Assembly: GCF_039539445.1 (NCBI RefSeq)
Contig: NZ_BAABDD010000001.1
Coordinates: 444,103-508,102, forward strand
Length of the DNA stretch: 64,000 nt
Reading direction: 5' to 3'
Source: Salinactinospora qingdaonensis
GTDB taxonomy: Bacteria; Actinomycetota; Actinomycetes; Streptosporangiales; Streptosporangiaceae
Under the pieces are notes generated by a model. It was given only the letters and a program-made list of their open reading frames with translations, ran no database searches and was not told the origin of the DNA. The translations under genes and the position numbers were made by a program. Within the stretch, counting starts at the first letter, position 1. Each line of letters begins with the position of its first letter. Shown one piece after another: positions 47,502 to 64,000 of the stretch.

Positions 47502-48287
47502 TCACCCGGAGGGAGCGGGCAGGGGGAGCAGGTAGGGGCGCTCGCCGTTCATCAGCGCGCGGAAGTGGCCGACGACGCGAGCCACAGCGGCCGGGTCGCG
47601 CAGCAGCACCCCCAGTTCGATGTTGTCGGTGAGCGCGCGTGCGGTGAGGTTGGCGCTGCCGATCAGCGCGGCGGAACGGTCGGCGGCGATGACCTTGGCG
47701 TGCAGCGCCGCTCTACCGTCGCCGCCCCTGCGGTGGGCGGGCCAGTGCCAAAAGTGAGCTCGGCGCCGCAGCCGCGCGAACGGGGCGTGGGCGTTGGTGC
47801 TTTCCTCCAGCACCAGGTCGATGCGTACGCCGCGGTCGGCGGCGGCGACCAGTTCGGTTACGAGCGGAGAGGTGTGGGAAGCGGCGAAGCTGACGATCAG
47901 CACCTCGCGCTGGGCCTGGCGGATGAGTTGGCTCAACACCGCCGTGGTCAGCCGCGCCGGCTGGCCGGCCGAACGGGGGCCGCTGACCACTACGGCGGGC
48001 CGGTGACGGCGGGTTCGCTCGGCCATCGTCGCTGCGGCCCGCAGCGCCGCGGCCGCCGCTGCGGCCGGGGTCGCCGGCTCTCCCCGCCATGCGCGCACGA
48101 TCCGGGCGGCGTCGGCGGCCATACCGTAGCCGGGACGCGCGGCTAGCAGCGCCGCCTCCAGGCCGGGCTCGTCGGGGCCGGCAGCGGCGGCGAGAACGTC
48201 GGCCCAGGCGCTCGCGTGCTCGCCGGGGAGCCGGTCGGCGAGGGCGCAGAGCTCTTCGATGAGCCCCGTGTTGGGGGGATCGCTCAT
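47502..48287 (-). CDS. drmC: phospholipase D-family (HKD) protein, DISARM DrmC-like
   Basis: Starts MSDPPNTGLIEEL. HKD motif HAKVIAADRSAALIGSANLT. ATGA overlap with the drmB stop. The 679-aa ORF in the track is an artefact that runs on in-frame over drmB. Confidence 0.75.
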   Translation of the reverse strand: MSDPPNTGLIEELCALADRLPGEHASAWADVLAAAAGPDEPGLEAALLAARPGYGMAADAARIVRAWRGEPATPAAAAAAALRAAATMAERTRRHRPAVVVSGPRSAGQPARLTTAVLSQLIRQAQREVLIVSFAASHTSPLVTELVAAADRGVRIDLVLEESTNAHAPFARLRRRAHFWHWPAHRRGGDGRAALHAKVIAADRSAALIGSANLTARALTDNIELGVLLRDPAAVARVVGHFRALMNGERPYLLPLPAPSG

Positions 48288-50146
48288 TGGACGAAGCCGG
48301 TGCCGGCGGGGCCACTGGCGAGCGTGTCGACGACGAGAGCGCGGTCCAAGTAGTGGTTGTTGCGCTCGCACGAGGTCTCGGCGGCGAACATGCAGGCGTG
48401 ACAGGCCGCACCGTAGAGTCGGGCGTGGTCGTGGGGCTCCTGTTCGGCGCATAGCGGGTCGGAGCTGCACAGCCGGGCCGCCTCCAGCGCCTGCTCGATA
48501 AGCGTGTCGAGCCGGTCGGGGTCTTGGCCCAGCGACACCAGACCGCCGAGTGTGCCCTCGCTGTCGGAGGCGGCTGTGTAGAGCAGTACACCCGCCATCG
48601 GGTCGTCGCCGTCGCGAGCGTAGACCCGTTCGGCGATCCCGGAGGCGCTGTAGCCCGACTCCAGCGCGAACTCGCGGATGAGCGCGTGGGCGAAGGAGTG
48701 CAGCATCAGGTAACGCACGCCGGGCCACCCGCCCGAGTCGAGTCCTCGGGCCAGGCGCCAACGCTGGTGTCCGTCGCGCAGCCGTTTCTCCCGGCGCACC
48801 ACTTCGGGCCGGCGCTCCCACGCGGCGACCTGCTCCTCGCGGAACCGCAGGAATATCCCCTCGCCGCGCTGTTCGGCGCAGGGCACCCACGTGGGCGATC
48901 CGCTCGCCAACGGTGCGATCCGTTTGTCTTCGGTGCTGCGCACCTCGAACTCGGGAGCGCCGATGCGCGTGAAGCCGTAGAGGGCGCTGACCTCGCGCAG
49001 CCGGGGTACGAGCGTTACCCGCCGCAGGAACGCGCCGGCCCGGCGGGGGGTGGCGACCCGGGTGGTCGTGAAATCGGGGAGATGCACCTCCTCGTCGCGG
49101 GTGAAGGCCTGCCACTCCGGGCCGGCGAGGTCGTCCTCGCCGAGTTCGGGCTCCGAGCCGGCGGTGTCGGAGCGCTGGGCGCGGCGCTGGATCGCGCGCC
49201 AGACCTTGGCCAACCCGTGATGCTCCAACTGGGGCCAGCACGGCAGGACCTCCAGCACGGGCCGGGCCTGCTCCTGCGACAGGGAGACCAGCGGTTCCAG
49301 CGTCGACCAGTTCTCGGCGAGGGTGTTGTCGAGCGGATCGTCCTCCCGCGGGAGGCTGAACACGCGAATCTGGGTGGGGAACCAACTGTTGGTGGCGCCC
49401 AGCGAGAGCGCCCGAGTGGACTGGTCGCAGCCTTCGAAGAGGCTCAGGTGGGGGTGGCGGCCCCGGCAGGCCGGCAGGTTCTTGGCGGCGTTGTCGGGGC
49501 CGATGGCCTCGGACATGGCGCGTCCTTGGCCGCAGGCGCACACCACCCGCACGTTGGCCGCCTCACCTGAGGTGCCGGTCTCGACGAGTTTGAGGGTGTG
49601 GGGCTGCTCGCCGCCGGGCTCGGGGACGCTGCCGCGGTGGACGAAGAACATCCACGGGAAGTCGTCGAGGTGACCTTTCTCGCAGGCCAGCACGAACCGG
49701 GCCGGCACCACGGTGGGGCGGCTGCGCCCCTGGCCGTAACAGTTGTGGACGATGCGGGTCTTGTCGGGACGGTAGGGGGAAAAGATCGGTTGGAACGAGC
49801 CGGCGTCGACGGGGCCGAGGTAGTTGCAGTCGCCTTTGGTGCAGCGCAGCCACCGCGGAAACAGCGCGACCGGCACGCCGATGCGGCTCCACTCGTCGTG
49901 GACGTTGCGGTGGTTGGGTGGGGTGTAGGGCGGGGTGCGCAAGCTTTCCACCTGCGTTCCGAGTTCGCGGCGTACCGCAGCCAGCAGCCGGGGCTCGGGG
50001 ATGACGGTGGTGCGGGCCGGGTCCCAGTGGTCGAGCCCGAGGATGGTCACCGACAGGTTGGGCATGTCGGCGATGGCTCCCACACCGAAGGTGTGCAGCA
50101 GTTGGCTGGTGCGCAGTTCTCCCACGCGCTGGGGCGGGGTGGTCAT
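48284..50146 (-). CDS. drmB: DUF1998-domain protein, DISARM DrmB-like
   Basis: Likely start MTTPPQRVGELRTSQLL (ATGA overlap with drmA stop). C-terminal Cys cluster CAEQ...CHACMF...SCERNNHYLDR typical of DUF1998. Confidence 0.75.
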   Translation of the reverse strand: MTTPPQRVGELRTSQLLHTFGVGAIADMPNLSVTILGLDHWDPARTTVIPEPRLLAAVRRELGTQVESLRTPPYTPPNHRNVHDEWSRIGVPVALFPRWLRCTKGDCNYLGPVDAGSFQPIFSPYRPDKTRIVHNCYGQGRSRPTVVPARFVLACEKGHLDDFPWMFFVHRGSVPEPGGEQPHTLKLVETGTSGEAANVRVVCACGQGRAMSEAIGPDNAAKNLPACRGRHPHLSLFEGCDQSTRALSLGATNSWFPTQIRVFSLPREDDPLDNTLAENWSTLEPLVSLSQEQARPVLEVLPCWPQLEHHGLAKVWRAIQRRAQRSDTAGSEPELGEDDLAGPEWQAFTRDEEVHLPDFTTTRVATPRRAGAFLRRVTLVPRLREVSALYGFTRIGAPEFEVRSTEDKRIAPLASGSPTWVPCAEQRGEGIFLRFREEQVAAWERRPEVVRREKRLRDGHQRWRLARGLDSGGWPGVRYLMLHSFAHALIREFALESGYSASGIAERVYARDGDDPMAGVLLYTAASDSEGTLGGLVSLGQDPDRLDTLIEQALEAARLCSSDPLCAEQEPHDHARLYGAACHACMFAAETSCERNNHYLDRALVVDTLASGPAGTGFVQ

Positions 50147-53100
50147 TGCTCGCCTCGGTCGTCGGTCTCGGAGGAGGTGTAGGGGATGAAGGGGGGTTCG
50201 GCGCCGTCGCCGAGATCCTGGCCCGGATCGAGGACGAGCCGGATGCCGGGTTCGACCTCGCGCAGCGAGGTCGGGCAGGTGGTGGGCTTCCACGGGGCGC
50301 CGTCGGGGCTGTCCAGCAGCGCCTGGGCGTCGGTGTTCTTCGGCGGCTCTTTGTAGACCAGCCGCACGCCTTGCTTTCTTCGGCGGGCTTCCCAGACGTC
50401 GAGCCGGTTGTCGAGTTCGTCGTGGATATCGCGGGCGGCCTGGCTGCTGCCGGTGACGGTGCGGGCGCGCCGGTCGATCTCGTTGACGATGTGGTCGGCG
50501 ACCTTGCCGGAGCGGTCGAACATGCGGGCGGCGTCGTTGGGGTTGAGGGCGGTCTCCAGGTTGCGCACGAGGGAGACCAGCACTCCCATCAGGCCGCGGT
50601 CGACGGCCCGTGCGGCGAACGGCGTCACCGACAGCGCTTCGACGTGACGGTACATGGTGGCGTGGAAGGCGTGGAAACGCTCGTAGTGGGAGAGGTCGCG
50701 CGGGCGCGACCAGTTGTAGACGGTGAACACCAGCCCGGGGGCGCGGCGCCCCACCCGGCTGGTGGCCTGGATGTACTCGGCGGTGGACTTGGGCTGGTTG
50801 TTGACCGTCATGACGCCGAGCCGGGCGACGTCGACCCCGACGGCGATCATGTTGGTGGCCAACAGCACGTCGATCGGGCGCTTGGTGCGGTCGGCGGCCG
50901 AGACGGCGAGCCGTTCCAGCACGGCGGGGATGTCGTCGGAGCCCAGCCGCGAAGTCAGCTCCGCAGCCCAGGGGGTGCGGCGCCGGGCCAGGCCGCGCTG
51001 GTCGGCGCGCCCCAGCCGGGTGGCCACGTCGTCGTCGACTAGGCGGCGCATCCCGCCCAGGTCACGCAGGCTGTTGAAGTAGCCCACCAGGGTCATGTAG
51101 GGGTCGGTGACCTCGTTGCCGCCGTAGGTGTCGTGCAGGCGCTGGGCGGCGGCCAGGATCGCGACGAACACCCGGATCTGCACCGACTTGATGCGCACGC
51201 CGTGGGCGCATAGGCCGATGTAGCGCCGGCCGTCGCGGCGTTCGGGGGCGCGCTGGCGGGAGAAGAAGTTGTCGGCGGCGTCCAGGCCCTGCGGCGGGAA
51301 CACGCGGGTGTCGCGGCCGGCGAACAGCGCGCCGATCTGGCGGGTGGCGCGACGCACGGTGGCGGTGGAGGCGATGACTTTGGGCCGCACCTGCACCGTC
51401 GCGCCGCTGCCGGGAGCGGTGTAGTCCCAGGAGGCGAGGCGGTCCACCGCGGTCTCGTACAGCCCCACCAGCGACCCCAGGGGGCCGGAGATGAGGTGCA
51501 GCTCGTCCTGAACGATCAGGTCGGGCGGACGCAGCGCGGCGGTGGGTTTGACGTGGGCGGCCGGCAGCGACCGAGGACGGGTCTCGGCCTGGTGCTGCGA
51601 CACCCCGCCGCAGACCTGCTGGTGCAGCTCGCCGGCGAGGTAGCCGTGCCGGGTGCAGACCCGACCCACCCGACCGAATAGCGCCTGGGTCTCGCCCTGC
51701 CAGGCGAGCTGGGCGAACTTGTCGACCGTGGCGATGATCAACGAGGGCACCAGCCGGTAGATCTCGTCGTCGACGACGAGGACCGGCAGCCCCTCGCCGC
51801 CGCTGGGGTAGGCGCTGAAGGGGCACTCCAGGTCGGGGCAGCGAATGCGGGTGCGCTGCTCGGCGGGGTCGACGTCGATGTCGGAGCCGGAATCGACCGT
51901 CGCGCCGCACCAGGGGCAGGTGACCAACTGGTGCGGCGAGCCGTCGGCGCGATTGCCGGCCCCGCCCCGCTGGCTGCGCCGCGCCCGCACCCACTCCTCG
52001 GCGGCCTTGGTGCGGTTGGGGGTGACCCTGCCGCCCACCCACAGGCCGATCCGAAACGGCACGCGCCCCCACGTGTCCTCGTCGTCGCGGCGCAGCACCT
52101 CGCAGGCGCAGATGAGGGCGGCGGCGCGCTGGAACTGCTGGATGGTCAGCAGCCGCAGCGTGTAGCGCATCAGCACCGCCACACCGGAGCGCCCGCGCAC
52201 GTCGGCGCCGTCGAGGTCGCCCTGCAACCGCCGGATCGCCAGCGTGTAGGCGGTCAGGCCCAGGTAAGCCTCGGTCTTGCCGCCGCCGGTGGGAAACCAC
52301 AGCAGGTCGGCGACCCGGCTTTCGGGAGCGGCGCGTTCCTCGTGGGCGGGGTCGGTGAGCGATGGCAGGTTGAGGAGGAGAAACGCGAGCTGGAAGGGGC
52401 GCCAACTGCGGTTTCGCGGCGTGTCGAGCTCGGCGGCGACCTCGTCGATGGCGCGGGTGGTGTCACCGCCGCGCGCGGCGGCTGCCAGGGAGTGCACGCG
52501 CTGACGGCGCATGGCCTCGTTGGCGAACTGGAAGGCGCGCAGCGCGGCGGGGTCGGTGGCGAGCAGCTCGACGGCGGCCTCGATGCGGTGTGCGGCGCGC
52601 TCGGCGTCGGCGAGGTTCTTCTCGGCCTCGGCGCGGTACTCGGCGAGGTGGGCGGCCGGGTCGGTGATGCGGTCGCGCTGCCGGGCGATCCAGGCGCGGT
52701 AGCCGGTGACGAGCGGGTCCAGGCCGGCGCGCACGTCACCGGCCTGCATCCGGGCGAGTTCGCTCATGTCGAGGGTGAGGCGGGCCAGCTCGGGCAGGTC
52801 GGGGTCCTCCTCGGCGCTGGGCACGTCGGTGTGGGGCAGCTCGTAGCGGGGGACGCTCGCGGTGCGCACCGCGACGGCCCGCATGGGGTCGTCGGGCGCG
52901 GGGTCGACCGCCACGGCGGTGCTGTGGCCCACGGCGAACTCGCCGGCGAAGCGGTAGGTCATGGCCAGCCGGCGCTGTTCTTCGCGGTCGAGCTGGTCGC
53001 CGCCGGAGGAGTGGTCGGGGCGCGGGACGAACACCGGCGCGGCGCCGTCGGCGGCGGTGGCCCTCAGTTCGGCTTGGAACAGCCACTTCTTCCACTCGCG

Positions 53101-53688
53101 GTCCTCTCCGGTCTGCCCGTTGACCAGGAACAGGGTGACCAGGGTGTGGCCGGCGAAGGAGCGGACCCGACCGCGCAGGCACACGCCGGGCTGTTCGGGG
53201 TCGAGTTCCACGGCGGGGATCTCGCCCTCGGCCAGCGAGATGAGGGTCTGGCCACTTCGGGGGTCGCGGCGGCGCACCTGCTTGCCGGAGCCGTCGTCGG
53301 CGGTGGCGTCGACGTAGCGTGCCCAGGTGGCCCGCACGAGCAGCCGCTCGGTGTCGGGGGCCACGGAGGCGGTGAACCCGTGGGCCGAGCAGGACATGCT
53401 GGGGGTGGCGGGGGCTTCGGGCTCGGGATCGTCGTCGTCGGGGTCCAGTGCGACCTCGTCACCGCTGTTGAGACCGACTTCGGCGAGGTTGTCCTGCTCC
53501 TCGGGGTGGAACACCGCCCCGTTGGGGGCGAGCCGCCCTAGGATGTAGCGGTCGGTGGGGCGCTCGCCGGAGAACTCCTCGTGCTCGTCGCCGCCGATGG
53601 GACCGTACAGGTCGGCGACGACCAGCTCCTCCAACTCGGCTCGGATCTCGCGCGCCGAGGGCACTTTCAACACCCGCTGCTCAACCAT
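50143..53688 (-). CDS. drmA: SF2 DExH helicase, DISARM DrmA-like
   Basis: Start MVEQRVLKV at 53688 (the ORF track extends 117 aa further upstream in-frame). Motif I FPTGGGKTEAYL, motif II IVQDELHLISGP, C-terminal domain LLATNMIAVGVDVARL...YIQATSRVGRR. Confidence 0.75.
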   Translation of the reverse strand: MVEQRVLKVPSAREIRAELEELVVADLYGPIGGDEHEEFSGERPTDRYILGRLAPNGAVFHPEEQDNLAEVGLNSGDEVALDPDDDDPEPEAPATPSMSCSAHGFTASVAPDTERLLVRATWARYVDATADDGSGKQVRRRDPRSGQTLISLAEGEIPAVELDPEQPGVCLRGRVRSFAGHTLVTLFLVNGQTGEDREWKKWLFQAELRATAADGAAPVFVPRPDHSSGGDQLDREEQRRLAMTYRFAGEFAVGHSTAVAVDPAPDDPMRAVAVRTASVPRYELPHTDVPSAEEDPDLPELARLTLDMSELARMQAGDVRAGLDPLVTGYRAWIARQRDRITDPAAHLAEYRAEAEKNLADAERAAHRIEAAVELLATDPAALRAFQFANEAMRRQRVHSLAAAARGGDTTRAIDEVAAELDTPRNRSWRPFQLAFLLLNLPSLTDPAHEERAAPESRVADLLWFPTGGGKTEAYLGLTAYTLAIRRLQGDLDGADVRGRSGVAVLMRYTLRLLTIQQFQRAAALICACEVLRRDDEDTWGRVPFRIGLWVGGRVTPNRTKAAEEWVRARRSQRGGAGNRADGSPHQLVTCPWCGATVDSGSDIDVDPAEQRTRIRCPDLECPFSAYPSGGEGLPVLVVDDEIYRLVPSLIIATVDKFAQLAWQGETQALFGRVGRVCTRHGYLAGELHQQVCGGVSQHQAETRPRSLPAAHVKPTAALRPPDLIVQDELHLISGPLGSLVGLYETAVDRLASWDYTAPGSGATVQVRPKVIASTATVRRATRQIGALFAGRDTRVFPPQGLDAADNFFSRQRAPERRDGRRYIGLCAHGVRIKSVQIRVFVAILAAAQRLHDTYGGNEVTDPYMTLVGYFNSLRDLGGMRRLVDDDVATRLGRADQRGLARRRTPWAAELTSRLGSDDIPAVLERLAVSAADRTKRPIDVLLATNMIAVGVDVARLGVMTVNNQPKSTAEYIQATSRVGRRAPGLVFTVYNWSRPRDLSHYERFHAFHATMYRHVEALSVTPFAARAVDRGLMGVLVSLVRNLETALNPNDAARMFDRSGKVADHIVNEIDRRARTVTGSSQAARDIHDELDNRLDVWEARRRKQGVRLVYKEPPKNTDAQALLDSPDGAPWKPTTCPTSLREVEPGIRLVLDPGQDLGDGAEPPFIPYTSSETDDRGEQ

Positions 53689-53780
53689 GAGGGCCACTCT
53701 AGGACGCCGCGCCGACACCGGCAGCGCCGACGGCGAACCGGAAAGCGGGAGGCCGACCCGCGTCTCGGGCGCGAACCTAT

Positions 53781-54419
53781 TCAGGTGTGGGCGAGCAGTC
53801 GCCCGACGAGGATGTGGACATCGGTCCAGGGGTTTTTGGCAGTGGGGTGGGCCTGCTCTGGGAAGTTCTCGGCGAGCTTGGCCGCCCGGTCGATGGCGTC
53901 CCGACGCCGTTGACCGGTGAAGTGGGCGGGGTTGATGTCCTTGTCGGCGGTGTAGCAGCAGTTGAGCCTGCGCATCCGGTCTTGGGCTTGGCCGGTGGTC
54001 AGATAGCCCGTGTGCGAACGCTGGTGCAACAGCAGCCACAGTTCGAAGCAGGGGGTGGTCAGGGCACAGCGGATGTTGTTCCTGCGGGCGAGGGCGAGCG
54101 CTTCATCGAGGGAGGAGTGCGGCTGGGGAGCCTCGACGTCGAGGACACACCAGACCTCATCGTAGGGTTCTCCCTGGTCGGCTCGCCGCTTACCAGCGCT
54201 GTCCTGGCGGATTTTCGCCTTTTTAACCATTTTGAGAGGTTCGCCGGCTTCTCCGTCGATATCGACCTTAAGGCCGGAAAAGCGCAGTTCCCTCTTAATC
54301 GCCCTGAAGTAACTGGGAGCGGCATTTTTGTCCTCACAACAGATGAGGAAACGGCGTTTCTCCTGCTTTGTTCCGGTCTTCGGTTGCAGCGAGGACCGCT
54401 TTTTCAGTTTTGACCCCAC
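53781..54419 (-). CDS. RloB-like (Toprim-like) protein, AbiLii-like
   Basis: 212 aa. RloB-family conserved features (LICCEDKN.. ETNYF; ..CFELWLLLH). Sits 10 bp downstream of the AAA ATPase. Confidence 0.55.
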   Translation of the reverse strand: MGSKLKKRSSLQPKTGTKQEKRRFLICCEDKNAAPSYFRAIKRELRFSGLKVDIDGEAGEPLKMVKKAKIRQDSAGKRRADQGEPYDEVWCVLDVEAPQPHSSLDEALALARRNNIRCALTTPCFELWLLLHQRSHTGYLTTGQAQDRMRRLNCCYTADKDINPAHFTGQRRRDAIDRAAKLAENFPEQAHPTAKNPWTDVHILVGRLLAHT

Positions 54420-54428
54420 ATGGCCATG

Positions 54429-55962: not shown

Positions 55963-56724
55963 TCAGGACTGGTGCAGCACACACGTCTCAAGGTCGAATC
56001 GGGTGTGGGTCACCCGGTCGAGCAGCGGCTTGGCGTGCTCGTACTTGGGTTGCAGCTCCCGGGCGAGTACGACGGTGGCCACCGTGTGCGCCCCGGCCCG
56101 CTTGAGGCGGTGGGCCGCCGACTGGGCGCGTGCGCCGGTGACCCAAGTGTCGTCGATCAACAGCACGTTCGCCCCCTCGACACTCGTGGACTCGCCCGAG
56201 AGGTCGAACCAGTCGGCGTGGAACGAACGGCTGGCGGTGTCGATGCCGGTGTTGACGACGAGCTCGACGCGGTTGAGCGAGATCTTGGGCGCGAGCAGGA
56301 CTTGCAGGGGATGGACCGCCTCCGTGTGCTTCGTGCTGGGCACGAAGCACACGTGGGTGAAGCGCTCGATCCCCACGGACTGCTTGACGCAGGTGATGTG
56401 GGTCTTGCAGAAGTACCAGAAGAGGGCGTGCAGCCGGCGCCGTGCCGCCTCGTTGCCTCGCAAGGGACGCTTGTACATCACGAGATCCTGGGCGTGCTGC
56501 CCGTTGTCGTTGACCCGGTAGGAGATGGGGACGACCGCGTCGGCGAGCACTCCCCCGGAGCTGTTCCGGGCTTCCACGCAGCGCCAGCAGCGGGAGAGCT
56601 CGACCGGCACGGCGCCGTAGCAGACCTCGCAGGCTCCCGCGGCGGCGGGAAGCGCAGCGTGCAGGTAGTTGACCTGCACCGCCACCTGGTGACGGATGAT
56701 CTCCCAGGAACTCTCACCAGGCAA
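55963..56724 (-). CDS. ComF-like phosphoribosyltransferase with N-terminal Zn-ribbon; ShosT-like candidate
   Basis: CEVCYG...CWRC zinc ribbon. PRTase type I motif VLLIDDTWVTGARAQSAAHRLKRAGA. Confidence 0.55.
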   Translation of the reverse strand: MPGESSWEIIRHQVAVQVNYLHAALPAAAGACEVCYGAVPVELSRCWRCVEARNSSGGVLADAVVPISYRVNDNGQHAQDLVMYKRPLRGNEAARRRLHALFWYFCKTHITCVKQSVGIERFTHVCFVPSTKHTEAVHPLQVLLAPKISLNRVELVVNTGIDTASRSFHADWFDLSGESTSVEGANVLLIDDTWVTGARAQSAAHRLKRAGAHTVATVVLARELQPKYEHAKPLLDRVTHTRFDLETCVLHQS

Positions 56725-57667
56725 TGTCGACGGCCTCGTGCAGATCCTCGGGGGTCAGCTCGGCTTCCCGGATCAGGGCGTCGACCGTGGCGGCGAGCTG
56801 ATCGAGGCTGTCGACCACGTGCACGCCGGGGAATTCGGCGTAACGACGCGCCCACTCGTTGACCAGCAGCTCGCGCGGAAAGATCACGGGACGTCCGTGT
56901 TGCAAGGCGAAGCGGGCCTGGATACGGGCGCCGCTGTGCTCACCGGCCTCCACGACGACGGTGGCGGTGGCATAACCGCTCATCACAGCGTTGCGCATGG
57001 GGAAGCTGCGCTTGGACGGCGGGGCGTCGGGCAGGAACTGGCTCAGCAGCATGCCGCGCCGCGCGATCGTCTCGTGCAACTCCCGGTTCTGCTTGGGGTA
57101 ACAGCGGTTGATCCCGGTGCCCAGGACGGCGACGGTGCGCCCGCCGTGGGCGAGGGCGGCGGTGTGGGCGGCGGTGTCGATGCCGAGGGCCAGACCGCTG
57201 ACCACGGTGATGCCGCGCGAGGCGAGCATGCCGGCGATGTTCTCGGCGATCTCCAGCCCGCGCTGGGACGCTTTGCGCGATCCCACGACAGCGATTGCGT
57301 GGGCATCAGAGCGCAGTTCACCCCAGGTGAAGACTATGGGGGGCATCTCGTGGATCTCGCGCAGCCGCGCCGGGTACTCCTCGTCGAGGAAGCTGAGGAC
57401 CCGCACGCCACGCTTCTCGCAGTCGGCCAGCAGATCGTGGGCGGCCGTGACCTCGGTCGGCGGCTCAGCAGCCGAAAACAACGCCTCTTGGGGGGCTGGT
57501 TGGCGCTGCAACACGGTTACGGCGCTACCGGCCTCCATCACGGTCTCGGTAATGGTCCGCCATCGCGAGCCTTCGCGCAGCAGCAGTGCCACCATCGCGG
57601 TCCGCTCGTCGATCTGCTGCATGCGTCCGATCGTAGAAGCTCGCCGCCCCCTGCCCAACTCCGACAT
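56714..57667 (-). CDS. DprA/Smf (SLOG)-family protein; ShosA-like candidate
   Basis: Rossmann-like DprA core AIAVVGSRKASQRGLEIAENIAGMLASRGITVVSGLALGIDTAAH. 11-nt overlap with the PRTase gene. No competence or housekeeping neighbours. Confidence 0.55.
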   Translation of the reverse strand: MSELGRGRRASTIGRMQQIDERTAMVALLLREGSRWRTITETVMEAGSAVTVLQRQPAPQEALFSAAEPPTEVTAAHDLLADCEKRGVRVLSFLDEEYPARLREIHEMPPIVFTWGELRSDAHAIAVVGSRKASQRGLEIAENIAGMLASRGITVVSGLALGIDTAAHTAALAHGGRTVAVLGTGINRCYPKQNRELHETIARRGMLLSQFLPDAPPSKRSFPMRNAVMSGYATATVVVEAGEHSGARIQARFALQHGRPVIFPRELLVNEWARRYAEFPGVHVVDSLDQLAATVDALIREAELTPEDLHEAVDIAW

Positions 57668-57884
57668 CGCGACCGCCCTTACAACGGTGTGACCTTACAC
57701 CGGTTTCCGGTGATGTACTTACCGATATCCACAATAGAACACACGTTCTAACGATGATCTTGTGGTCTACCGTACAGAGGGCTGCGGGAGCGAGAGGAGA
57801 AGGAGAGACGGCTCGGTGCTCGCGAGAAGCCGGGGCGACGACAGAAGCAGTCCTAGCGGGGCCAGGTTCTGTTCTTTGGAGGGA

Positions 57885-58010
57885 CGGCCGGGGCCGGCGG
57901 TGGGCGCACGCGGGCGAGCGCGCCCGCTATCAGCCCACGCGGGCTGCCGAGATCGCGCAGCGATCGAGGCACGAGCGGACGACGAACACCCCACAGCCCC
58001 ACTCCAGCCG
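57885..58010 (-). repeat. REP-like element copy C (inverted), left boundary of the 58.0-63.9 kb block
   Basis: The reverse complement of 57921-58005 aligns to 63911-64000 at about 90% identity. Confidence 0.6.
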
Positions 58011-58702
58011 CTCAAAAAACAGAACCCAGGGCGCTAACCACAGAGCAACTCCATGAGTTCCTGCGCGCTCATGCCCGCGGTTTCCGCAGCGGTGCCACTG
58101 CCGTACAGCCTCCACGCCATACGCTGCTCCCGCGTCTGCGCGCCCGCCACCCGCACAGGCACAGTGCGCCGTCCTCACCTTCAGCAACGTCGGCCTCGCC
58201 ACCTTCGTACCATCCGACCTTGTCGCGAAGCTCGGCCGAGATCGTGACCTGCCCCTTGTTGTCGATCCGCACCCTCACTCCTCCGTATTACGTCTATTAC
58301 GCAATACTGGCTGTCTCCGATGTGGTGAGAAGGCACACGAGCCGCGGGCGAAAGACACGTCGCAAGCCCGGTGAGGCGGAACCACACGCGGTTGCCTTGG
58401 CGACGGGACCGCAACTCCGGAGGGTGATTGACGAATAGCCTTCATTTGCCGACAGAAGGGAAGATCCGCCACATTGGTCAAGATTAATTAGCAGCAGGTC
58501 AAAACCCTTCGACTCATCTCAAGCAGCCGTGGCGAAACAAGGCGCCCCGACCGGGGATAGCTGGCATTCGATCCCCGAAACATCTCAATTAGCGACATAC
58601 CACCTGCCCAGAACTTGGGAAGCATTCTTGAAACATTGCGCGACGAACGACCCCAGTTGACCGCAGTTCGCCTTACGTTTCCGGAACTGCTAAGAAAGAC
58701 CC

Positions 58703-59512
58703 GTGCAACTCCCCATGTCGAAGGCTCAGATCGGTAGACTCGGCCAACGACTGATCCGTTCAGAGACTCCTTCCGAGGAGGACATCGCCGCCCTCCGGGA
58801 GCTACTTTTAGTGTACTCCCAGATGTTGGCCGAGACAGTTGAGTTTGTAACCTCAAGGCTGGAGCTGCTGCCGAGCTCTCGAACGAAGACGGAAGAGACG
58901 ATCCTGGAGAAGCTACGCCGCGGTGGCGGCCGTTGGCTACGGGACGTTCAGGACCTAGCCGGTATGCGCTTTGTCTTTGAGGGAGACCTCAAAGAACAGG
59001 ACAGGCTGGTTGAACAGGTTTCAGGATTGTTTATCGACTGTCCGAAACCCGTAAGGGTTATTGACCGCCGCAACGAGCCCAGTCACGGCTACCGAGCTGT
59101 CCACGTAATCGCGTTTCCTCACGGTATACCTGTCGAGATTCAGATACGCACATTGCTACAGCACGAGTGGGCGGAGACATTCGAGAAGCTCGCCGACCTC
59201 GCCGGCAGAGGCATACGGTATGGGGACAATCCTTCTCACATGGTTGTTCATAGTGCTAGTGCTTCTTTGTGGATTGCTGCGCCGGTTGATGATCCACGCG
59301 CACCAGCCATGCGCGCGGCCGCTCCACCGGGTAGCAGGCTGGCGATTGAAAGCATGCGGGAACTCGCGGCGCTGATCGCGGATCATGAAGAGCGGTGCAC
59401 GGAGAGACCCGACGACGTAGAGCTGTCGCAGGCTACACTGGAGTTCCAGGAGACGCTGAGCACATTCAAACAGATGTTGATCGGCCTAGCCTCATCACCT
59501 CCGGACGAGTAG
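58703..59512 (+). CDS. RelA/SpoT-domain nucleotidyltransferase (small alarmone synthetase-like; toxSAS-like candidate)
   Basis: DLAGMRFVFEGDLKEQDRLV...GYRAVHVIA...IPVEIQIRTLLQHEWAE is a canonical RelA_SpoT synthetase domain. No hydrolase or regulatory domains. Confidence 0.7.
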   Translation: MQLPMSKAQIGRLGQRLIRSETPSEEDIAALRELLLVYSQMLAETVEFVTSRLELLPSSRTKTEETILEKLRRGGGRWLRDVQDLAGMRFVFEGDLKEQDRLVEQVSGLFIDCPKPVRVIDRRNEPSHGYRAVHVIAFPHGIPVEIQIRTLLQHEWAETFEKLADLAGRGIRYGDNPSHMVVHSASASLWIAAPVDDPRAPAMRAAAPPGSRLAIESMRELAALIADHEERCTERPDDVELSQATLEFQETLSTFKQMLIGLASSPPDE

Positions 59513-59517
59513 GGGAC

Positions 59518-59778
59518 ATGGTGAAGAACTTCCTGCTGGTCTACGACCGCCGCCGGGGAGAACTTCTTCGCGAGGAGGAGTTCAGTGACCCCCGGGAAGC
59601 GATGATGGCCAGGTTTGATGCTGAGGACAAGTTCCGGGGCACAGGACGCAACGTCGAGATCGTCGTGCTGGGGGCGCAGTCCCGCGAGGACCTGCTGCGT
59701 ACTCACGGCCGTTACTTCTCCACAGCGAGCCAACTGGTCGACAGGCTCTCCAGCTCGCTGAAGATCACACCTGCTTGA
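59518..59778 (+). CDS. small protein (86 aa) translationally coupled to the RelA/SpoT gene; candidate antitoxin/partner
   Basis: ATG 5 nt after the upstream TAG, with a GAGTAGGGGA RBS embedded in the upstream gene's end. MVKNFLLVYDRRRGELLREEEF... Confidence 0.4.
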   Translation: MVKNFLLVYDRRRGELLREEEFSDPREAMMARFDAEDKFRGTGRNVEIVVLGAQSREDLLRTHGRYFSTASQLVDRLSSSLKITPA

Positions 59779-59882
59779 GCGGAGCGTCGACGCTCAGGGG
59801 CGGCCCATAGCGAACGTACTCAGCGGGCGCCGGGGAGAGCGGAAGACTCCCTGCCCTTGCCGACAACGCTTCGGCGAGTGCC

Positions 59883-60590
59883 TTAGTCGGCGGGAACATG
59901 CCGTTGGCCGCACTGCTCGGCGTCTTCACAGAACCGGTTCCACGAGCGGTTGGAGCCCATCGGCGAACCGAGGTCCTCCTCATTCGCGATGACGCTGAAG
60001 ACCTTCGGAGCGTCCGACTCGCTGTACCTTCGTCCCCCCTTCTTGGGAACGTCCTGCATCAGCACCTTCTTCGGGTCGGCGATCTTGCCGGTATCTTTTC
60101 CCCTGAAGCGCACCGGAACCTGCCACGTTGACACCACGCTGCGCAGCGCGTGGGGGAAGAGCAGCAGCCACGCCTCCATCTCAGCTACCGCCAGCACGTA
60201 GTGGGCGCTGCCGAGATGGGCGTGCAGCTCGCGTTCCACCTTCTCGTGTACGGCCAGATAGTTTTCGCTGTCCACTCCGTCGAGATCCTCGTGGACGAAC
60301 ACGCACGCCACCTCGGTGTTCTCGCGCTGCGCGCGGGCTTTGATCTTGCCGGCCAGTGTCTTGACCCGTTGGGAGAGCCGGCTGCCGGTGGCTTGACGCA
60401 GCCGCACATCATCGCTGATCTCCACGATCCGACCGCTCATGTGCGGACAGATCGCTTCGAGGAGGGCGCGCAGGCTCTGCCGGTCGTTGCGGTCTTCCCC
60501 CGCCACCACGACCACCGGTTTCTTGACCGCTTTCCTGCGGGTACCGCCGCGAGGGCTCACAGATCCCCTCCCAGCGCCCCGGAGAACCAC
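59883..60590 (-). CDS. DUF4276-like (Toprim/OLD-C-terminal-like) protein, partner of the AAA_21 ATPase
   Basis: 235 aa. Acidic VFVHEDLDG and AEMEAWLL motifs resemble Toprim. Overlaps the AAA gene end. Start uncertain. Confidence 0.5.
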   Translation of the reverse strand: MVLRGAGRGSVSPRGGTRRKAVKKPVVVVAGEDRNDRQSLRALLEAICPHMSGRIVEISDDVRLRQATGSRLSQRVKTLAGKIKARAQRENTEVACVFVHEDLDGVDSENYLAVHEKVERELHAHLGSAHYVLAVAEMEAWLLLFPHALRSVVSTWQVPVRFRGKDTGKIADPKKVLMQDVPKKGGRRYSESDAPKVFSVIANEEDLGSPMGSNRSWNRFCEDAEQCGQRHVPAD

Positions 60591-61798
60591 AGCTCCCCCA
60601 AAGGCAGCCCTTCGCTGGCGGTCACGATCCGTTCCATCTCGCGTGCGGAGAGCGCGGGAATGTCGGAGGCGCCGTCGTCGCCGCGTTGGCAGACCACGAG
60701 TTCCGTGGGGCGCAGCCTGTCGGCGAGGGCAGGCGAATGCGTGGCGATGAGGAACTGGGTGTGCTCGCTGGCTTGGCGGACCCGTTCCACGAGCATCTCC
60801 AGCGCCTGCGGATGCAACCCGTGGTCGATCTCCTCAATGCAGGTCAGCGCGGGCGGCTGCGGATCGTAGAGCAAAGCGAGCAGCCCGAGGAGCCGGATCG
60901 TTCCGAAGGAGGCGTCGGCGAGTTCGGTGCTGCCGCGCAGCCCGTCCTCTTCCAGCACGACGATGACCTCGCGCGCCGCGCCGGAGGGAAAGCGGAAGTC
61001 GACGGCGCGCAACCCCGGCAGTACCCGCCTGGCGTCCTCCTCAAGGCGCTGCCAGGCGTCCTCGTCCCTGCTGCGCAGCGACAGCAGGAACGCGGCGAGG
61101 TTGGCCGCATCGTCGTCGAGCTTTTCATTGTCGGTTCGGGGAAACCGTGAGGGCGAACGCGCGAAGTCGACGTTGACGTCGAAAACCCGGAAGGAGGCGA
61201 GTTGCTCGGCCAGTGCCGCCACTTCAGCGCCGCCGGCGTCGTCGCTGAGCCGGGGGAGGGTCGACAGACCGCTGCTGAGCCGACGCAGACCGATCGAATG
61301 CTTTGTCTCTCCCTGGCTTTGCCTTTGGTCCACGACGTTGGCTTGCTCACCGCTGATCGTGATCCGCCGCCCCCGGCCCTGGGTCCGTTTGAACTGGAAG
61401 CTCTCCCTGCGCGAGAGGGAGACGCTGTCGCCTTTGGCTCGGCGGGTGATCCGCAGATCGTACTCGTCGGGCGCGCTCGCACTGCTGTAGCTGGTCCAGG
61501 TGGCTTGTAGCTTGATCCTGATGGACGGTGGGGTTCTCTCGCCGCCTCGAAACACCGTTCCGTCGAACCCGCCTCGGGCGTCGAGCGCGGGCTCGATGTC
61601 GGTGCGGATGATGTCGGCGAGGAACCGGAACACGTCAAGCACGTTGGTCTTTCCCGCACCGTTGGGGCCGACCAGCACGTTGAGCGGTCCGAGTGGGATC
61701 TTGACCTTGCGCAGACTCCGGAAGTTCTCGACTTCGAGTTGCAGCAGCCGCTTCTGCATAGGACCAGCATCCCATCTGATCGATCGCTGCGCTTCCAC
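60557..61798 (-). CDS. AAA_21/ABC-type ATPase (SMC-like)
   Basis: LQLEVENFRSLRKVKIPLGPLNVLVGPNGAGKTNVLD (Walker A), IEEIDHGLHP (Walker B/D-loop), LIATHSP (H-loop). Confidence 0.7.
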   Translation of the reverse strand: MEAQRSIRWDAGPMQKRLLQLEVENFRSLRKVKIPLGPLNVLVGPNGAGKTNVLDVFRFLADIIRTDIEPALDARGGFDGTVFRGGERTPPSIRIKLQATWTSYSSASAPDEYDLRITRRAKGDSVSLSRRESFQFKRTQGRGRRITISGEQANVVDQRQSQGETKHSIGLRRLSSGLSTLPRLSDDAGGAEVAALAEQLASFRVFDVNVDFARSPSRFPRTDNEKLDDDAANLAAFLLSLRSRDEDAWQRLEEDARRVLPGLRAVDFRFPSGAAREVIVVLEEDGLRGSTELADASFGTIRLLGLLALLYDPQPPALTCIEEIDHGLHPQALEMLVERVRQASEHTQFLIATHSPALADRLRPTELVVCQRGDDGASDIPALSAREMERIVTASEGLPLGELWFSGALGGDL

Positions 61799-61933
61799 CG
61801 CGAACGGTGCCCCCGGTTCGACGGAAGCGGTGGAGCGATGTCATGTGTCCGCGGCCCCGCCCCTGTGGGGGATGGACTCCGCCGGGGAGCCGTGACGAAC
61901 GCGGGGACCGGGGCCGTCGACGTGCCTTCCGAG

Positions 61934-62383
61934 TCAGGCGGCCGGCCAGTCGCTGCCGTCGAGGTCGTCGGCGAGGTGGAACCACACCATGCGGAACCCC
62001 GGCAGGCCGTTGTCGCCCCAGGAGGTGGAGAGGCTGTCCACCAGCGCCAGGCCACGGCCGTGCTCGGGGACGGTCTCGGGTTCCTCCTCTGGGACGGCCT
62101 CGGGATCGTGCCCGGTCGACGCTGCGGCCGGGCGCGGAACGAGGTGGACGGGAGCGCTGCCGTGGTGGTGGCCGGTCGCGTCGACGCCGTCGTCGCGGCA
62201 GGTCAACGTCATGCCGTCGCGGAAGCGCCGGGCGTGCAGCCGGAAGGTGCCGCCCACCCGGCCGGAGCGGGAGTGCTGGATCGCGTTGGCCGCCAGCTCA
62301 CCGCCGAGCAGGCCGAAGACGTAGCGGTAGTCCTCGGAGCGGTCGGCTGCGCACGTGTCGAGGAAGGCGTGCACCAGCGGCAT
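61934..62383 (-). CDS. HATPase_c-type ATP-binding protein (anti-sigma regulatory factor-like)
   Basis: ELAANAIQHS (N box), GRGLALVDSLSTSWG (G2 box). Confidence 0.65.
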   Translation of the reverse strand: MPLVHAFLDTCAADRSEDYRYVFGLLGGELAANAIQHSRSGRVGGTFRLHARRFRDGMTLTCRDDGVDATGHHHGSAPVHLVPRPAAASTGHDPEAVPEEEPETVPEHGRGLALVDSLSTSWGDNGLPGFRMVWFHLADDLDGSDWPAA

Positions 62384-62764
62384 GAGGACCGGATCGCCCC
62401 CGGAACTCGAACGAGCGCCGGGTGAACCGCCGCACCGGCCGTCGGTTGAAGTAGTACTCGCTGCCCGACGGGATCACCATCGAGAGCGGAACGGTCACTT
62501 CGGGTAGCGACGGCGGCGCCAACAGGCCGGGCGTGACGGGCATAGGGAGACTCCTTGTTCGCACGGGCCGCGACAGCGGCCGGGAAGCGGACAGCCCCAA
62601 CGGTTTCCGGCCATCCCCAGCCGGAGGAGGGGGCACGGGCGTAGCGTGGTGACCAACACTTTGAGCGACGGTTTGGTTACCTGATATAACTACATAGTGA
62701 GCGTGAAGTTCACTCACGTCAATGGCTAACGTGAAGTTCACCAAAAAGATCGAAGGCTGAGCCC

Positions 62765-63634
62765 ATGGCAATGCAGCGCCCCCACAGCCCTTCCCTCCGC
62801 CGTCGGCGACTCTCTGCCGAACTGAAACGCGCCCGGGAGAACATGGGCATGACGACGGCCCAGGTTGCCGGGGAACTCAAATGGGCTGTCGGCAAGATCA
62901 GCAAGATCGAGAACGCCGAGACCAAACGCATCAGCACCCCGGACCTGGACAGACTGCTGGATCTCTACAAGATCAGGGACCAGGAGACCCGGGAAGCGAT
63001 GCAAGCCCTCGCCCGGGACGCCCGGGAGCGCGGCTGGTGGTCGAAGTACAAGGAGATCTTCGGAGAACGCGCCCTTCCCGACTTCGAGGCCGAAGCTTCG
63101 AGCATCCGTAGCTTCGAAGCCTTGAGCATCCCAGGGCTACTGCAAACTCCGGAGTACGCAGAAGCAATCTTCAGAGGCGGACGCTACACAGCCCCTGAGG
63201 AGGTCAAACGCCGCGTGGACTTCCGGATGGCCCGCCGGGAGATCCTGCTGCGTTTCAACCCGGCACACCTGCGTGCGGTCATCGACGAGGCAGCACTCCG
63301 CCGAGTCATCGGTGACCGGGAGGTGATGCGAACCCAGTTGGAGCACCTGCTCTACATGGCGCAACTACCCAACGTTGACGTGCAGGTCCTCCCCTTCGAG
63401 GCTGGCGCGCACTCAGCACTTGCGGCTCCGTTCACGATCTTGGATTTCCCAGATCCGCTGGACACTCCGATTGTTTATATCGGTACAGTTACCGATGCTG
63501 TATTTCTAGAGGAACATGGAGACATCGAGCGATGCAGCGCGACCTTCGGCGACGTTCAGGGGGCTGCTATGAGCACTACACGATCAGCCGCCTTCATAAA
63601 AGACGTGATCGCATCTCTGGAGAGTGACCAGTGA
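62765..63634 (+). CDS. XRE-family HTH regulator with DUF5753 domain
   Basis: LRRARENMGMTTAQVAGEL HTH. The C-terminal Scr1/DUF5753 region is typical of the streptomycete HTH-DUF5753/DUF397 pairs. Confidence 0.8.
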   Translation: MAMQRPHSPSLRRRRLSAELKRARENMGMTTAQVAGELKWAVGKISKIENAETKRISTPDLDRLLDLYKIRDQETREAMQALARDARERGWWSKYKEIFGERALPDFEAEASSIRSFEALSIPGLLQTPEYAEAIFRGGRYTAPEEVKRRVDFRMARREILLRFNPAHLRAVIDEAALRRVIGDREVMRTQLEHLLYMAQLPNVDVQVLPFEAGAHSALAAPFTILDFPDPLDTPIVYIGTVTDAVFLEEHGDIERCSATFGDVQGAAMSTTRSAAFIKDVIASLESDQ

Positions 63635-63879
63635 ACGAGCTTCAGTTTCGGAAGAGCAGCTACAGCGGGCAAGATCAGAACTGTGTAGAAGTGGCCCACT
63701 TCTCTTCCAACTTCCATAAAAGCAGCTACAGCGGCCAAGGCCAAGGCTGCGTAGAAGTGGCTGACTTCCCCTGCGGAGCGGCTGTCAGAGACTCGAAGCG
63801 TCCCGAGCACGGCCACCTCGCCTTCCCCGCCAGTGAGTGGAAAGCGTTCCTGAAAGCAGCGTGCGAGGAACAGCTCTAG
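63631..63879 (+). CDS. DUF397-domain protein with internal 63-bp tandem duplication
   Basis: RKSSYSGQDQNCVEVAHF followed by HKSSYSGQGQGCVEVADF, then AVRDSKRPEHGHLAFPASEWKAFL. 4-nt overlap with the upstream DUF5753 gene. Confidence 0.8.
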   Translation: MNELQFRKSSYSGQDQNCVEVAHFSSNFHKSSYSGQGQGCVEVADFPCGAAVRDSKRPEHGHLAFPASEWKAFLKAACEEQL

Positions 63880-63899
63880 GTTCTGTTTTTGAACGGATG

Positions 63900-64000
63900 G
63901 GGCGTGGGGCCACGGGGGTGTTCGTCGTCCGCTCGTGCCTCGATCGCTTCGCGATCTCGGCAGCCCGCGTAGGCGGATAGCGGGCGCGCTCGCCCACGTG
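63900..64000 (+). repeat. REP-like element copy D (direct), right boundary of the 58.0-63.9 kb block; truncated by the window end
   Basis: Aligns to the reverse complement of copy C over about 90 nt. Confidence 0.6.

Follow-up and report, generated by a model that had tools for sequence, protein, structure and literature searches.

The DISARM core and the modules beside it

The right-hand end of a 64,000-nucleotide stretch of the Salinactinospora qingdaonensis genome (contig NZ_BAABDD010000001.1, positions 444,103 to 508,102; called the window here and numbered from its first letter) holds the drmA, drmB, and drmC genes of a class-1 DISARM system together with a series of further modules upstream of drmA. 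Judged from sequence comparison, the region is probably a mosaic anti-phage defense island on a class-1 DISARM scaffold, in which the gap between drmMI and drmA (hereafter the slot) has been filled and the methylase half of the system is apparently gone. The host is a member of the Nocardiopsaceae, and the GC content of the whole 64 kb is 0.674. Since spurious long open reading frames (ORFs) abound in such high-GC DNA, genes were called from codon-position GC (frame plot), and the called genes were scanned with Pfam, PADLOC, and NCBIfam profiles. An earlier, sequence-only reading had proposed that at least six conflict systems are stacked contiguously here. The frame-plot calls and all three profile sets find every module where it had been placed, and five of them match known or candidate anti-phage systems; the sixth, a HATPase/XRE-DUF5753/DUF397 triad, is a regulatory cluster instead. 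The activity of each module is deduced from family membership. The modules form a compositional mosaic, with GC contents from 0.58 (phRel) to 0.75 (drmC), and the island reaches the right end of the window, so that its right boundary lies beyond position 64000.

The three core genes lie on the minus strand. The drmC gene (47502-48287) encodes a PLD-family nuclease of the class-I type (Pfam PLDc_2, 1.8e-18; PADLOC DrmC, 1.1e-85; NCBIfam DISARM_DrmC_I, 201 bits, with a cutoff of 133), drmB (48284-50146) encodes the DUF1998/MZB zinc-binding partner of DrmA (Pfam MZB, 4.7e-10; PADLOC DrmB, 6.8e-69; NCBIfam DrmB_fam, 671 bits, with a cutoff of 240), and drmA (50143-53697) encodes a superfamily 2 helicase (PADLOC DrmA, E=0, 1022 bits; NCBIfam DISARM_DrmAS, 1323 bits, with a cutoff of 950). 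The stop and start codons of drmA/drmB and of drmB/drmC overlap by 4 nt in each case, and the DrmB protein has an exact S. qingdaonensis record (WP_344966627). DrmA contains the motifs GGGKT, DELH, and TAT, and DrmC contains HxK(x4)D at residue 196. Of the alignment columns with ≥95% conservation in relatives, DrmA retains 343 of 350, DrmB 175 of 181, and DrmC all 29. DrmA is 68% identical over its full length to that of Nocardiopsis potens (locus L034). What had been described as a DISARM-like core is thus a genuine class-1 core, with all three proteins over the curated NCBI cutoffs, but it is half of a system, as drmD and drmMI are not in the window and none from this species was among the best 120 database matches to each. 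Gene order, stop/start overlaps, and catalytic motifs are shared with class 1 DISARM (drmD-drmMI-drmA-drmB-drmC; Ofir et al. 2018; Serratia sp. SCBI; DrmAB structure, PMC9142583), and the closest relatives of the core are bona fide five-gene class-1 loci. In contrast to these, the window is without drmD and drmMI, as apparently is the genome, it carries about 10 kb of unrelated cargo upstream of drmA, and a UvrD-like helicase that stands beside drmD in relatives is found past drmC.

Directly upstream of drmA, on the same strand, is a pair of AbiL-type genes. The first, abiLii (53781-54419, minus strand), encodes a RloB-family protein (Pfam RloB, 1.8e-32 over the full profile; PADLOC AbiLii, 3.8e-20) and has a GC content of 0.61, below that of its neighbors. 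The second, abiLi (54429-55739, minus strand), lies 9 nt upstream of it and encodes an ABC-type AAA_21 ATPase (Pfam AAA_21, 3.8e-33; PADLOC AbiLi, 1.9e-83). With both partners recognized side by side, the AbiL assignment of the earlier reading stands. An AAA_21 ATPase gene adjoining a codirectional RloB-family gene is also the arrangement of AbiL in Lactococcus and of RloA/RloB; unlike Lactococcus AbiL, the window proteins are distant sequence relatives in a high-GC actinomycete. RloB/AbiL-type genes are classic ORFs linked to restriction-modification (RM) systems.

The next two genes on the minus strand also overlap one another. The phosphoribosyltransferase (PRTase) gene (55963-56724) encodes a ShosT-like/ComF-like putative toxin of 253 amino acids with an N-terminal Cys4 motif and the phosphoribosyl pyrophosphate (PRPP)-binding motif VLLIDDTWVTG; the protein resembles ComF-type PRTases. 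Its Pfam match to Pribosyltran (4.7e-5) is below the cutoff, its PADLOC matches to PsyrT (3e-9) and ShosT (2.4e-5) cover the PRPP-loop region only, and a search of the PDB returned no ShosT match. The partner (56714-57667) encodes a DprA-family, ShosA-like putative antitoxin (Pfam DNA_processg_A, 7.5e-64; PADLOC ShosA, 4.5e-68) that in the PDB search matched ShosA (9vzo, 4.8e-27) and DprA (3uqz, 4e-34) and that scored 186 bits against TIGR00732, just below the cutoff of 191. A DprA-family protein paired and overlapping with a PRTase-motif protein is likewise found in ShosTA/PsyrTA (PMC11961720, PMC12961424), and other DISARM slots harbor homologous pairs: the PRTase has a 37%-identical homologue in the slot of L016, and the DprA-like protein has homologues in the slots of L016 (51%) and L025 (53%). 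However, characterized ShosT proteins combine an N-terminal hydrolase/pyrophosphatase domain with a C-terminal PRTase domain (PMC11961720), whereas in the window protein the Cys4 N-terminus replaces the 164-amino-acid hydrolase domain of E. coli ShosT (424 amino acids), and the antitoxin gene comes first. The pair is probably a ShosTA-like variant; the ShosA side of the earlier assignment is convincing, and the two-domain architecture of ShosT is lacking.

On the plus strand, the gene at 58703-59512 encodes a phRel-type toxSAS, a putative toxin consisting of a RelA/SpoT synthetase (Pfam RelA_SpoT, 2.1e-13, the sole domain detected by Pfam; PADLOC PDC-S33, 1.6e-19). Its GC content of 0.577 is the lowest in the island, and its product is 40% identical to gp29 of Mycobacterium phage Phrann (E 2e-32). 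The following ORF (59518-59778, plus strand) encodes an aTphRel-type putative antitoxin homologous to Phrann gp30 (43% identity over 47 amino acids; pairwise E 6e-8); it has no Pfam or PADLOC match, and the frame plot supports coding. It starts 5-7 nt past the toxin stop, in the same layout and spacing as gp29/gp30. In Phrann, gp29 is toxic, gp30 neutralizes it, and the pair has been linked to protection from superinfecting phages (PMC7229694); PhRel acts specifically as an inhibitor of translation (bioRxiv 10.1101/2021.04.30.441581). Homology of both genes to this founding PhRel:ATphRel pair, together with the shared gene order, spacing, and synthetase-only domain, argues for a PhRel:ATphRel-type toxSAS, in agreement with the earlier assignment. 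The window copy differs from the Phrann pair in being chromosomal and within a defense island rather than prophage borne, and the last ~80 residues of its toxin are not alignable to gp29. We also considered whether the RelA/SpoT gene and the next ORF are one frameshifted PDC-S33-like gene and rejected this, as the ORF misses the PDC-S33 model and matches the separate gp30.

The phRel pair converges on two genes of the minus strand that had been read as an ATPase plus DUF4276 pair. HEC-01B (59883-60590) encodes a TOPRIM-like DUF4276 protein (PADLOC HEC-01B, 1.1e-78 over the full profile; Pfam DUF4276, 2.3e-5, below the cutoff), whose annotated start in the database probably differs from the start called here, and HEC-01A (60557-61798) encodes an ABC ATPase (PADLOC HEC-01A, 7.3e-193 over its full length; Pfam AAA_21, 8.8e-39), of which a 68%-identical homologue adjoins drmD in L011. 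The full-profile matches bear out the pairing; as a defense system, HEC-01 has the status of a candidate, and E. coli tests of the family showed no protection (bioRxiv 10.1101/2024.01.29.577857).

The drmMI-drmA slot and the apparently missing methylase half

A search for DrmA in 185,579 species genomes returned 80 loci, including about 35 actinomycete loci at 55-68% identity; the nearest DrmA in metagenomes was 64% identical, and a plasmid search gave only two short matches. The relatives' loci (L001-L038) were compared by gene calling and clustering, PADLOC, and tblastn checks, and they share a uniform layout of drmD (SNF2), drmMI (an N6-adenine methylase of ~1360 amino acids), a variable slot, drmA, drmB, and drmC, with DrmD and DrmMI confirmed by PADLOC (E=0). 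Ten loci, mostly of Streptomyces, have a slot of <100 nt; in another 21 it spans 1.6-8 kb. Among the cargo are ShosA/ShosT homologues (L016), PDC-M02 (L026), a protein judged DUF262-like by visual inspection of its sequence (L020 and L022), extra methylases, and genes without assignment. The commonest content is an XRE-DUF5753/DUF397 pair, present in 13 of the 32 loci with a definable slot, and in relatives with a divergent layout the 3' end of the DUF397 gene is 0-60 nt from that of drmMI. A DISARM-related locus is also found on the 927-kb plasmid p1 of Streptomyces fungicidicus (L172; NZ_CP023408.1, 51343-64435), where a 1273-amino-acid protein annotated as a "sigma-70 family RNA polymerase sigma factor" is encoded directly before a DrmA-like helicase, a DrmB family protein, and a small "DNA helicase," with an XRE/DUF397 pair 6 kb upstream.

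Comparison with these relatives matches the ~10 kb of window cargo to the slot that separates drmMI from drmA in DISARM loci. In N. potens, the order is DUF397 and XRE in one direction followed by HATPase and drmA in the other, which is the window order minus 8.2 kb (53.7-61.9 kb); in the window, these 8.2 kb between the HATPase gene and drmA contain AbiL, the ShosTA-like pair, PhRel, and HEC-01. The modules are therefore not merely side by side, as the picture of a contiguous stack implied, although the mosaic character of the island is upheld. Homologous modules occur in different combinations in other DISARM loci. DISARM, BREX, and type I RM loci have been described before as frequent hosts of embedded defense genes (bioRxiv 10.1101/2024.01.29.577857), and the window resembles the cases of "guilt by embedding" (Payne et al. 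2024; DISARM/BREX/type I RM/Hma) in having cargo between the modification half and the helicase/nuclease half, with HEC-01 and PDC-S33 being families defined by that approach. The window differs from them in that four modules and a regulator cluster share one slot, some of the cargo is on the opposite strand, and the host system apparently no longer has the half by which one side of the slot is defined.

The drmA gene has a putative leaderless-type promoter at its start, TGTCGG-N10-TAGAGT-N7-ATG (53695-53726, minus strand), which is ~85% identical to the same position in N. potens. A -10-like hexamer 6-9 nt ahead of the start codon is a signature of leaderless actinomycete promoters. The general form in relatives is TGTC[AG]G-N9-12-TANNGT-N6-9-ATG/GTG; TANNGT occurs 6-9 nt before the drmA start in 31 of 35 loci, compared with 1.25% of shuffles, and the full composite motif occurs in 22 of 35, compared with 0% of shuffles. 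Such conservation suggests that the motif acts as a leaderless promoter, and it looks like one combined with an upstream operator-like element for a binding factor. With this motif at the drmA start, drmABC would be its own transcription unit and the slot an inter-operon gap, so that insertions there would disrupt neither half. In this GC-rich window, a sigma-70 consensus scan gave 0 promoter matches, and a terminator scan gave matches at chance level only.

Neither drmD nor drmMI was detected within the 64-kb window by tblastn, and no DrmMI C-terminus or remnant is encoded in its last 120-400 nt (63880-64000 included). As an indirect test at the level of the genome, N. potens DrmMI and DrmD were searched against a protein database of 5.8 billion clusters. 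No S. qingdaonensis protein was among the best 120 matches to DrmMI (down to 52% identity) or the best 120 matches to DrmD (down to 61% identity), whereas Nocardiopsaceae orthologues of the two rank at 65-77% identity in the same sets. As a positive control, seven other S. qingdaonensis proteins (DrmB, DrmC, AbiLi, RloB, PRTase, PhRel, and the UvrD-like protein) were all present in this database. These searches point to a probable loss of drmD-drmMI, or at least to the lack of intact copies; loss is presumed rather than relocation.

Alternatively, the DISARM system could be complete, with drmMI and drmD to the right of the window and an intact class-1 locus carrying unusually large cargo in a slot of >10.3 kb. 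We regard this as unlikely. The window does stop only 120 nt past the DUF397 gene, DrmABC is fully intact with its promoter kept, as expected of a working system, and slots of >10 kb may exist, since Micromonospora sp. LOL_023 (L025) also has no drmD or drmMI within 10 kb upstream of drmA. However, proteins of the same contig are represented in the database in which no S. qingdaonensis DrmMI or DrmD ranked among the best 120 matches, although orthologues at 65-77% identity did. Furthermore, DUF397 directly abuts drmMI in all six relatives with the divergent layout, and here a repetitive extragenic palindromic (REP)-like element is found in that place. L025 has long cargo of its own, in which a ShosA homologue occurs together with an XRE/DUF397 pair in divergent orientation, and is possibly another methylase-less core or a locus with a slot of >10 kb.

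Class-1 DISARM of Serratia is not autoimmune without drmMI/drmMII, and drmC is dispensable (bioRxiv 10.1101/2021.12.28.474362). A methylase-less core would be tolerable because class-1 DISARM shows no autoimmunity in the absence of its methylases, and by analogy the core in the window may be viable, with uncertain potency.

The abaA/whiJ/bldB-type cluster

Beyond HEC-01, the island continues with the triad. An abaA-like HATPase_c_2 gene (61934-62544, minus strand; Pfam HATPase_c_2, 1.1e-8, body at 61934-62383) is frameshifted: its N-terminal ~45 codons (ATG at 62544, with the ribosome-binding site AAGGAG) are out of frame with the HATPase body, both halves align to intact homologues of 181-186 amino acids, and the shift falls at a C5/G5 run (62395-62399). 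The shift may be a genuine inactivating mutation or may reflect an error in sequencing. Divergent from the abaA-like gene, on the plus strand, a whiJ-like regulator gene (62771-63634, start at 62765 or 62771) encodes 287 amino acids with an XRE helix-turn-helix and DUF5753 (Pfam DUF5753, 4e-60; HTH_31, 3.8e-12), 100% identical to an S. qingdaonensis entry (P0001) and 66% identical to the copy in the DISARM slot of N. potens. The bldB-like DUF397 gene (63631-63879, plus strand; Pfam DUF397, 5.3e-28, in two stretches) overlaps it by 4 nt. The bldB-like protein also has an internal tandem duplication of KSSYSGQ..CVEVA, corresponding to a 51-nt repeat (63652-63702 and 63718-63768) that is 80% identical. 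Between the divergent genes, two exact palindromic 12-mers, CGTGAAGTTCAC, form a putative operator (62702-62713 and 62730-62741, plus strand); spaced 28 nt apart, they precede the whiJ-like start by 30-70 nt and are the only two matches in the 64 kb, where 0.26 are expected. Comparable paired palindromes are found at the same place in L034 and L082/83. The copies adjoin the whiJ-like start and not the HATPase promoter, and binding to them is putative.

In gene content and arrangement, the triad is an abaA/whiJ/bldB-type paralogue cluster, which places it in a known family of actinomycete regulators and not among the demonstrated conflict systems. An overlapping XRE-DUF5753/DUF397 gene pair, a divergent HATPase_c_2 gene, and intergenic repeats are likewise found in the abaA-whiJ-bldB clusters of Streptomyces (PMC10294661; Scr1/Scr2, PMC6262351); the window copy differs in its position at the edge of a DISARM slot, its frameshifted HATPase gene, and its Nocardiopsaceae host. 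That these genes have no demonstrated function, as the sequence-only reading had it, does not hold, given the published regulatory roles for the family (PMC10294661, PMC10364602, PMC6262351). From the intergenic repeats that it binds, WhiJ9 activates the divergent gene next to it; BldB-family proteins antagonize this, and loss of BldB derepresses abaA paralogues (PMC10294661). By analogy with WhiJ9, the WhiJ-like protein of the window may bind the CGTGAAGTTCAC repeats. Strict orthology between the window triad and the DISARM-linked triad of N. potens was considered and set aside, as several paralogues are of similar identity.

The triad could also be the sixth conflict system, as the sequence-only reading implied; DUF397 would then be the toxin, and the XRE protein the antitoxin, of a type II toxin-antitoxin (TA)-like or abortive module. 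Makarova et al. 2009 (PMC2701414) and Kaur et al. 2020 (PMC7159879) have proposed DUF397 plus a helix-turn-helix protein as a mobile TA-like pair, with DUF397 as a coeffector in some conflict systems; relatives are named [quoted passage not shown] by NCBI, and the pairs are enriched in defense slots. However, fifteen XRE-DUF397 pairs of Streptomyces coelicolor are described as pleiotropic regulators, and earlier work on one pair is reported to have argued against a TA role (PMC10364602, PMC6262351, PMC12516864). BldB is a developmental regulator that does not bind DNA and hetero-oligomerizes with its paralogues (PMC10294661), and PADLOC has no models or matches for any of the three proteins. 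A sixth conflict system therefore seems very improbable.

As a regulatory cluster, the triad might act as the transcriptional switch of the defense locus, with a WhiJ-like activator on the paired palindromes, antagonized by the BldB-like protein, controlling the divergent genes (the abaA-like gene and HEC-01A/B here, the abaA-like gene and drmABC in N. potens), so that infection, a developmental stage, or a similar signal would turn the cargo on. We hold this to be possible but doubtful. XRE-DUF5753/DUF397 pairs in the slots of the 13 loci amount to 14 genes in ~81 kb of slot DNA, compared with no such pairs in the flanks of the same loci and only 2 pairs in roughly 300 kb (an estimate from ~14 actinomycete loci) of another DISARM lineage; L096 also has a pair in its slot. 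A HATPase_c_2 gene is directly upstream of drmA in L001, L002, L034, and L092. Positions are consistent, with either XRE and DUF397 reading toward drmA across a 75-nt gap or a divergent arrangement in which DUF397 and XRE read toward drmMI and a small gene or HATPase gene, ahead of any cargo, reads toward drmA; the intergenic region holds the paired palindromes as well as a conserved block. The published behavior of WhiJ9 and BldB fits this scheme (PMC10294661). The closest XRE homologues adjoin type I RM plus RmuC (L081), hsdMS (L083), and caspase/EACC1 genes (L085), and the XRE homologue of L091 is flanked by a NACHT NTPase and a PT-HINT toxin. Against such a switch, drmABC keeps its own conserved promoter whatever sits upstream, and the convergent phRel pair parts the triad from drmABC in the window, so that at most HEC-01 could be driven divergently; the abaA-like gene is frameshifted as well. 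Genomes hold many paralogues with developmental or antibiotic-regulatory phenotypes, and many contexts have nothing to do with defense, such as the Thermobifida core locus L082/84/87 (a housekeeping context). The counted loci are phylogenetically related, and the number of independent associations is thus below 13. No paper linking WhiJ/BldB to phage defense was found in the literature searched.

A broader proposal is that WhiJ/BldB(/AbaA) modules, a large regulator family known from sporulation and antibiotic phenotypes, are recurrent built-in parts of DISARM and other restriction-type loci that would serve the adjoining defense cargo as switches or infection sensors, and that drmABC with its TGTCRG-N10-TANNGT promoter functions independently of a methylase after the loss of drmD-drmMI; taken together, we would treat this as speculative and on balance doubtful. 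Neither the recurrence of whiJ/bldB pairs in DISARM loci nor the conserved drmA promoter element was met in the literature searched, and both are leads rather than findings about the window.

The equivalent site next to a homologous triad varies between contigs elsewhere. Among contigs encoding an identical XRE protein (P0004), hsdM-hsdS lies directly 3' of the HATPase gene in L083 and is absent in L082 and L084, all three being an otherwise identical Thermobifida-type core locus (cf. L087). In this locus, the site 3' of the abaA-like HATPase gene behaves as an insertion hotspot.

The island as a whole, its limits and its significance

Several points weigh against a mosaic island on a DISARM scaffold that has lost its methylase half. 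Presence/absence variation was seen only at an equivalent site beside a homologous triad (L083 compared with L082/L084). The absence of drmD/drmMI is judged indirectly, from database lists and from a window that ends 120 nt past DUF397, and a pseudogene, a divergent methylase, or a drmMI copy >120 nt past the window end may exist. A drmABC-only core may by analogy be weak or inactive, as deletion of drmD and drmMI in Serratia nearly abolished protection against one phage (10.1101/2021.12.28.474362), and HEC-01, as noted above, did not protect E. coli (bioRxiv 10.1101/2024.01.29.577857). In addition, N. potens has at least 3 XRE paralogues at 63-67% identity to the window XRE, which is not clearly orthologous to the DISARM-linked one, and an ancestral unit plus insertion is one of several histories.

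If the mosaic island is nevertheless what the locus holds, each module most likely acts independently: a single operon is hard to reconcile with the strand changes (the phRel pair converges on HEC-01) and with drmA having its own putative promoter, and the gene orientations already exclude one long transcript running from the HATPase gene through drmC. DrmAB would be the part that loads onto invading DNA, DrmC would serve as an accessory nuclease, and DrmABC would work, if at all, without its own methylation mark. AbiL, an ABC ATPase with a TOPRIM-like RloB protein of the abortive-infection type, and HEC-01 are predicted to be ATPase-nuclease sensors or effectors; the PRTase/DprA-like pair would be an abortive module of a nucleotide-metabolism toxin and a DNA-binding antitoxin; and infection would release the PhRel toxin, which would block translation. 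The whiJ/bldB cluster would directly control at most the abaA-like gene and HEC-01.

The REP-like elements that had been thought to separate the blocks are real and occur in four copies, but they bracket one island block only and are also found outside the island. The left copy (57907-58032, plus strand) is 88% identical over 129 nt to the inverted right copy (63873-64000, minus strand), which occupies the place of the drmMI 3' end in relatives, and partial copies at 38802-38849 and 39085-39159 share the core GGCTGCCGAGATCGCGCAGCGATCGAGGCACGAGCG. The element is an ordinary repeated intergenic element, and its predicted fold is unexceptional (z = -1.7). An origin of the 58.0-63.9 kb block by inversion or as a composite transposon was rejected, as the block is already oriented as in relatives and the element is also present at 38.8/39.1 kb. 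Adjoining the left copy, an ORF at 58069-58278 (minus strand) could be a decayed AbrB/MazE-type antitoxin (Pfam MazE_antitoxin, E=0.0084, below the cutoff), with an N-terminal RIDNKGQVTISAELRDKVG motif, a weak coding signal, and no toxin partner; tentatively, it is possibly the remnant of a further TA module. The low-GC intergenic stretches pointed out earlier are confirmed, with GC contents of 0.557 (58279-58702) and 0.564 (45173-45589) compared with 0.674 for the window.

On the left, defense genes end at drmC, where the limit of the island had been drawn. Beyond it are genes for three secreted Cys-rich proteins (45590-47421, plus strand) with signal peptides recognized by eye; these features and the lack of any Pfam or PADLOC match led us to reject them as island members. 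The second and third are recent tandem duplicates, with DNA stretches that are 93-94% identical, and the trio adjoins a GH64 beta-1,3-glucanase gene, with which it may make up a cassette, antifungal or for secreted toxins, that is wedged in between drmC and the UvrD-like gene. The UvrD-like superfamily 1 helicase gene (41533-43812, plus strand; Pfam UvrD-helicase and UvrD_C; PADLOC NERD+UvrD and GajB-like matches) encodes an N-terminal region of ~300 amino acids without assignment. Homologues at 27-41% identity lie divergently upstream of drmD in ten genome loci (L008, L009, L012, L014, L019, L020, L022, L031, L034, and L035) and in the metagenome locus L094, whereas the window gene is on the drmC side, 3.7 kb off, with the secreted-protein genes between. 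It is a possible accessory of the DISARM neighborhood, and a UvrD-like helicase is a component of the DISARM-related ARMADA II (PMC13463889). In a more distant DISARM lineage (L050, L064, L066, L067, and L154), a UvrD-like gene comes after drmB. Circular permutation was considered as an explanation for its position in the window, and no scenario fits without extra deletions.

Farther to the left, an Rfam scan of the window found two tRNA genes and nothing else. Both are tRNA-Lys(CTT) genes on the minus strand (23581-23654 and 34746-34821) that bracket an 11-kb block with a Ser/Thr kinase, two SPFH/flotillin-like proteins, and a 1658-amino-acid DUF3686-DUF7902-AAA protein; the duplicated tRNA suggests an integrated element. 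For the large genes at 25-33 kb, PADLOC gave nothing beyond a PD-T4-6-like match for the kinase, which probably reflects general similarity among kinases. A 2-kb stretch (3001-5000) with a markedly low GC content of 0.55 separates a class-II DAHP synthase gene from a SARP/NB-ARC/TPR regulator gene.

The island is one more case of defense systems nested in DISARM, and the systems are of known kinds. Its host is a poorly sampled halophilic actinomycete, and its proteins are without close relatives in public data: all of the island proteins checked are singletons at 90% clustering among ~15 billion proteins, and the nearest DrmA sequences are 68% (genomes) and 64% (metagenomes) identical; the housekeeping-level conservation that would have spoken against a variable island was not seen. 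An intact drmABC with a putative promoter of its own and apparently without its methylase and SNF2 partners bears on whether the helicase-nuclease half of DISARM has methylation-independent activity. The actinomycete drmMI-drmA gap stands out as a defined inter-operon hotspot, one that could be mined for new defense genes. Finally, the roles of whiJ/bldB/abaA paralogues have been unclear for decades, and the enrichment of whiJ/bldB pairs in this gap offers a testable hypothesis about what at least some of the dozens of such paralogues in each genome do.

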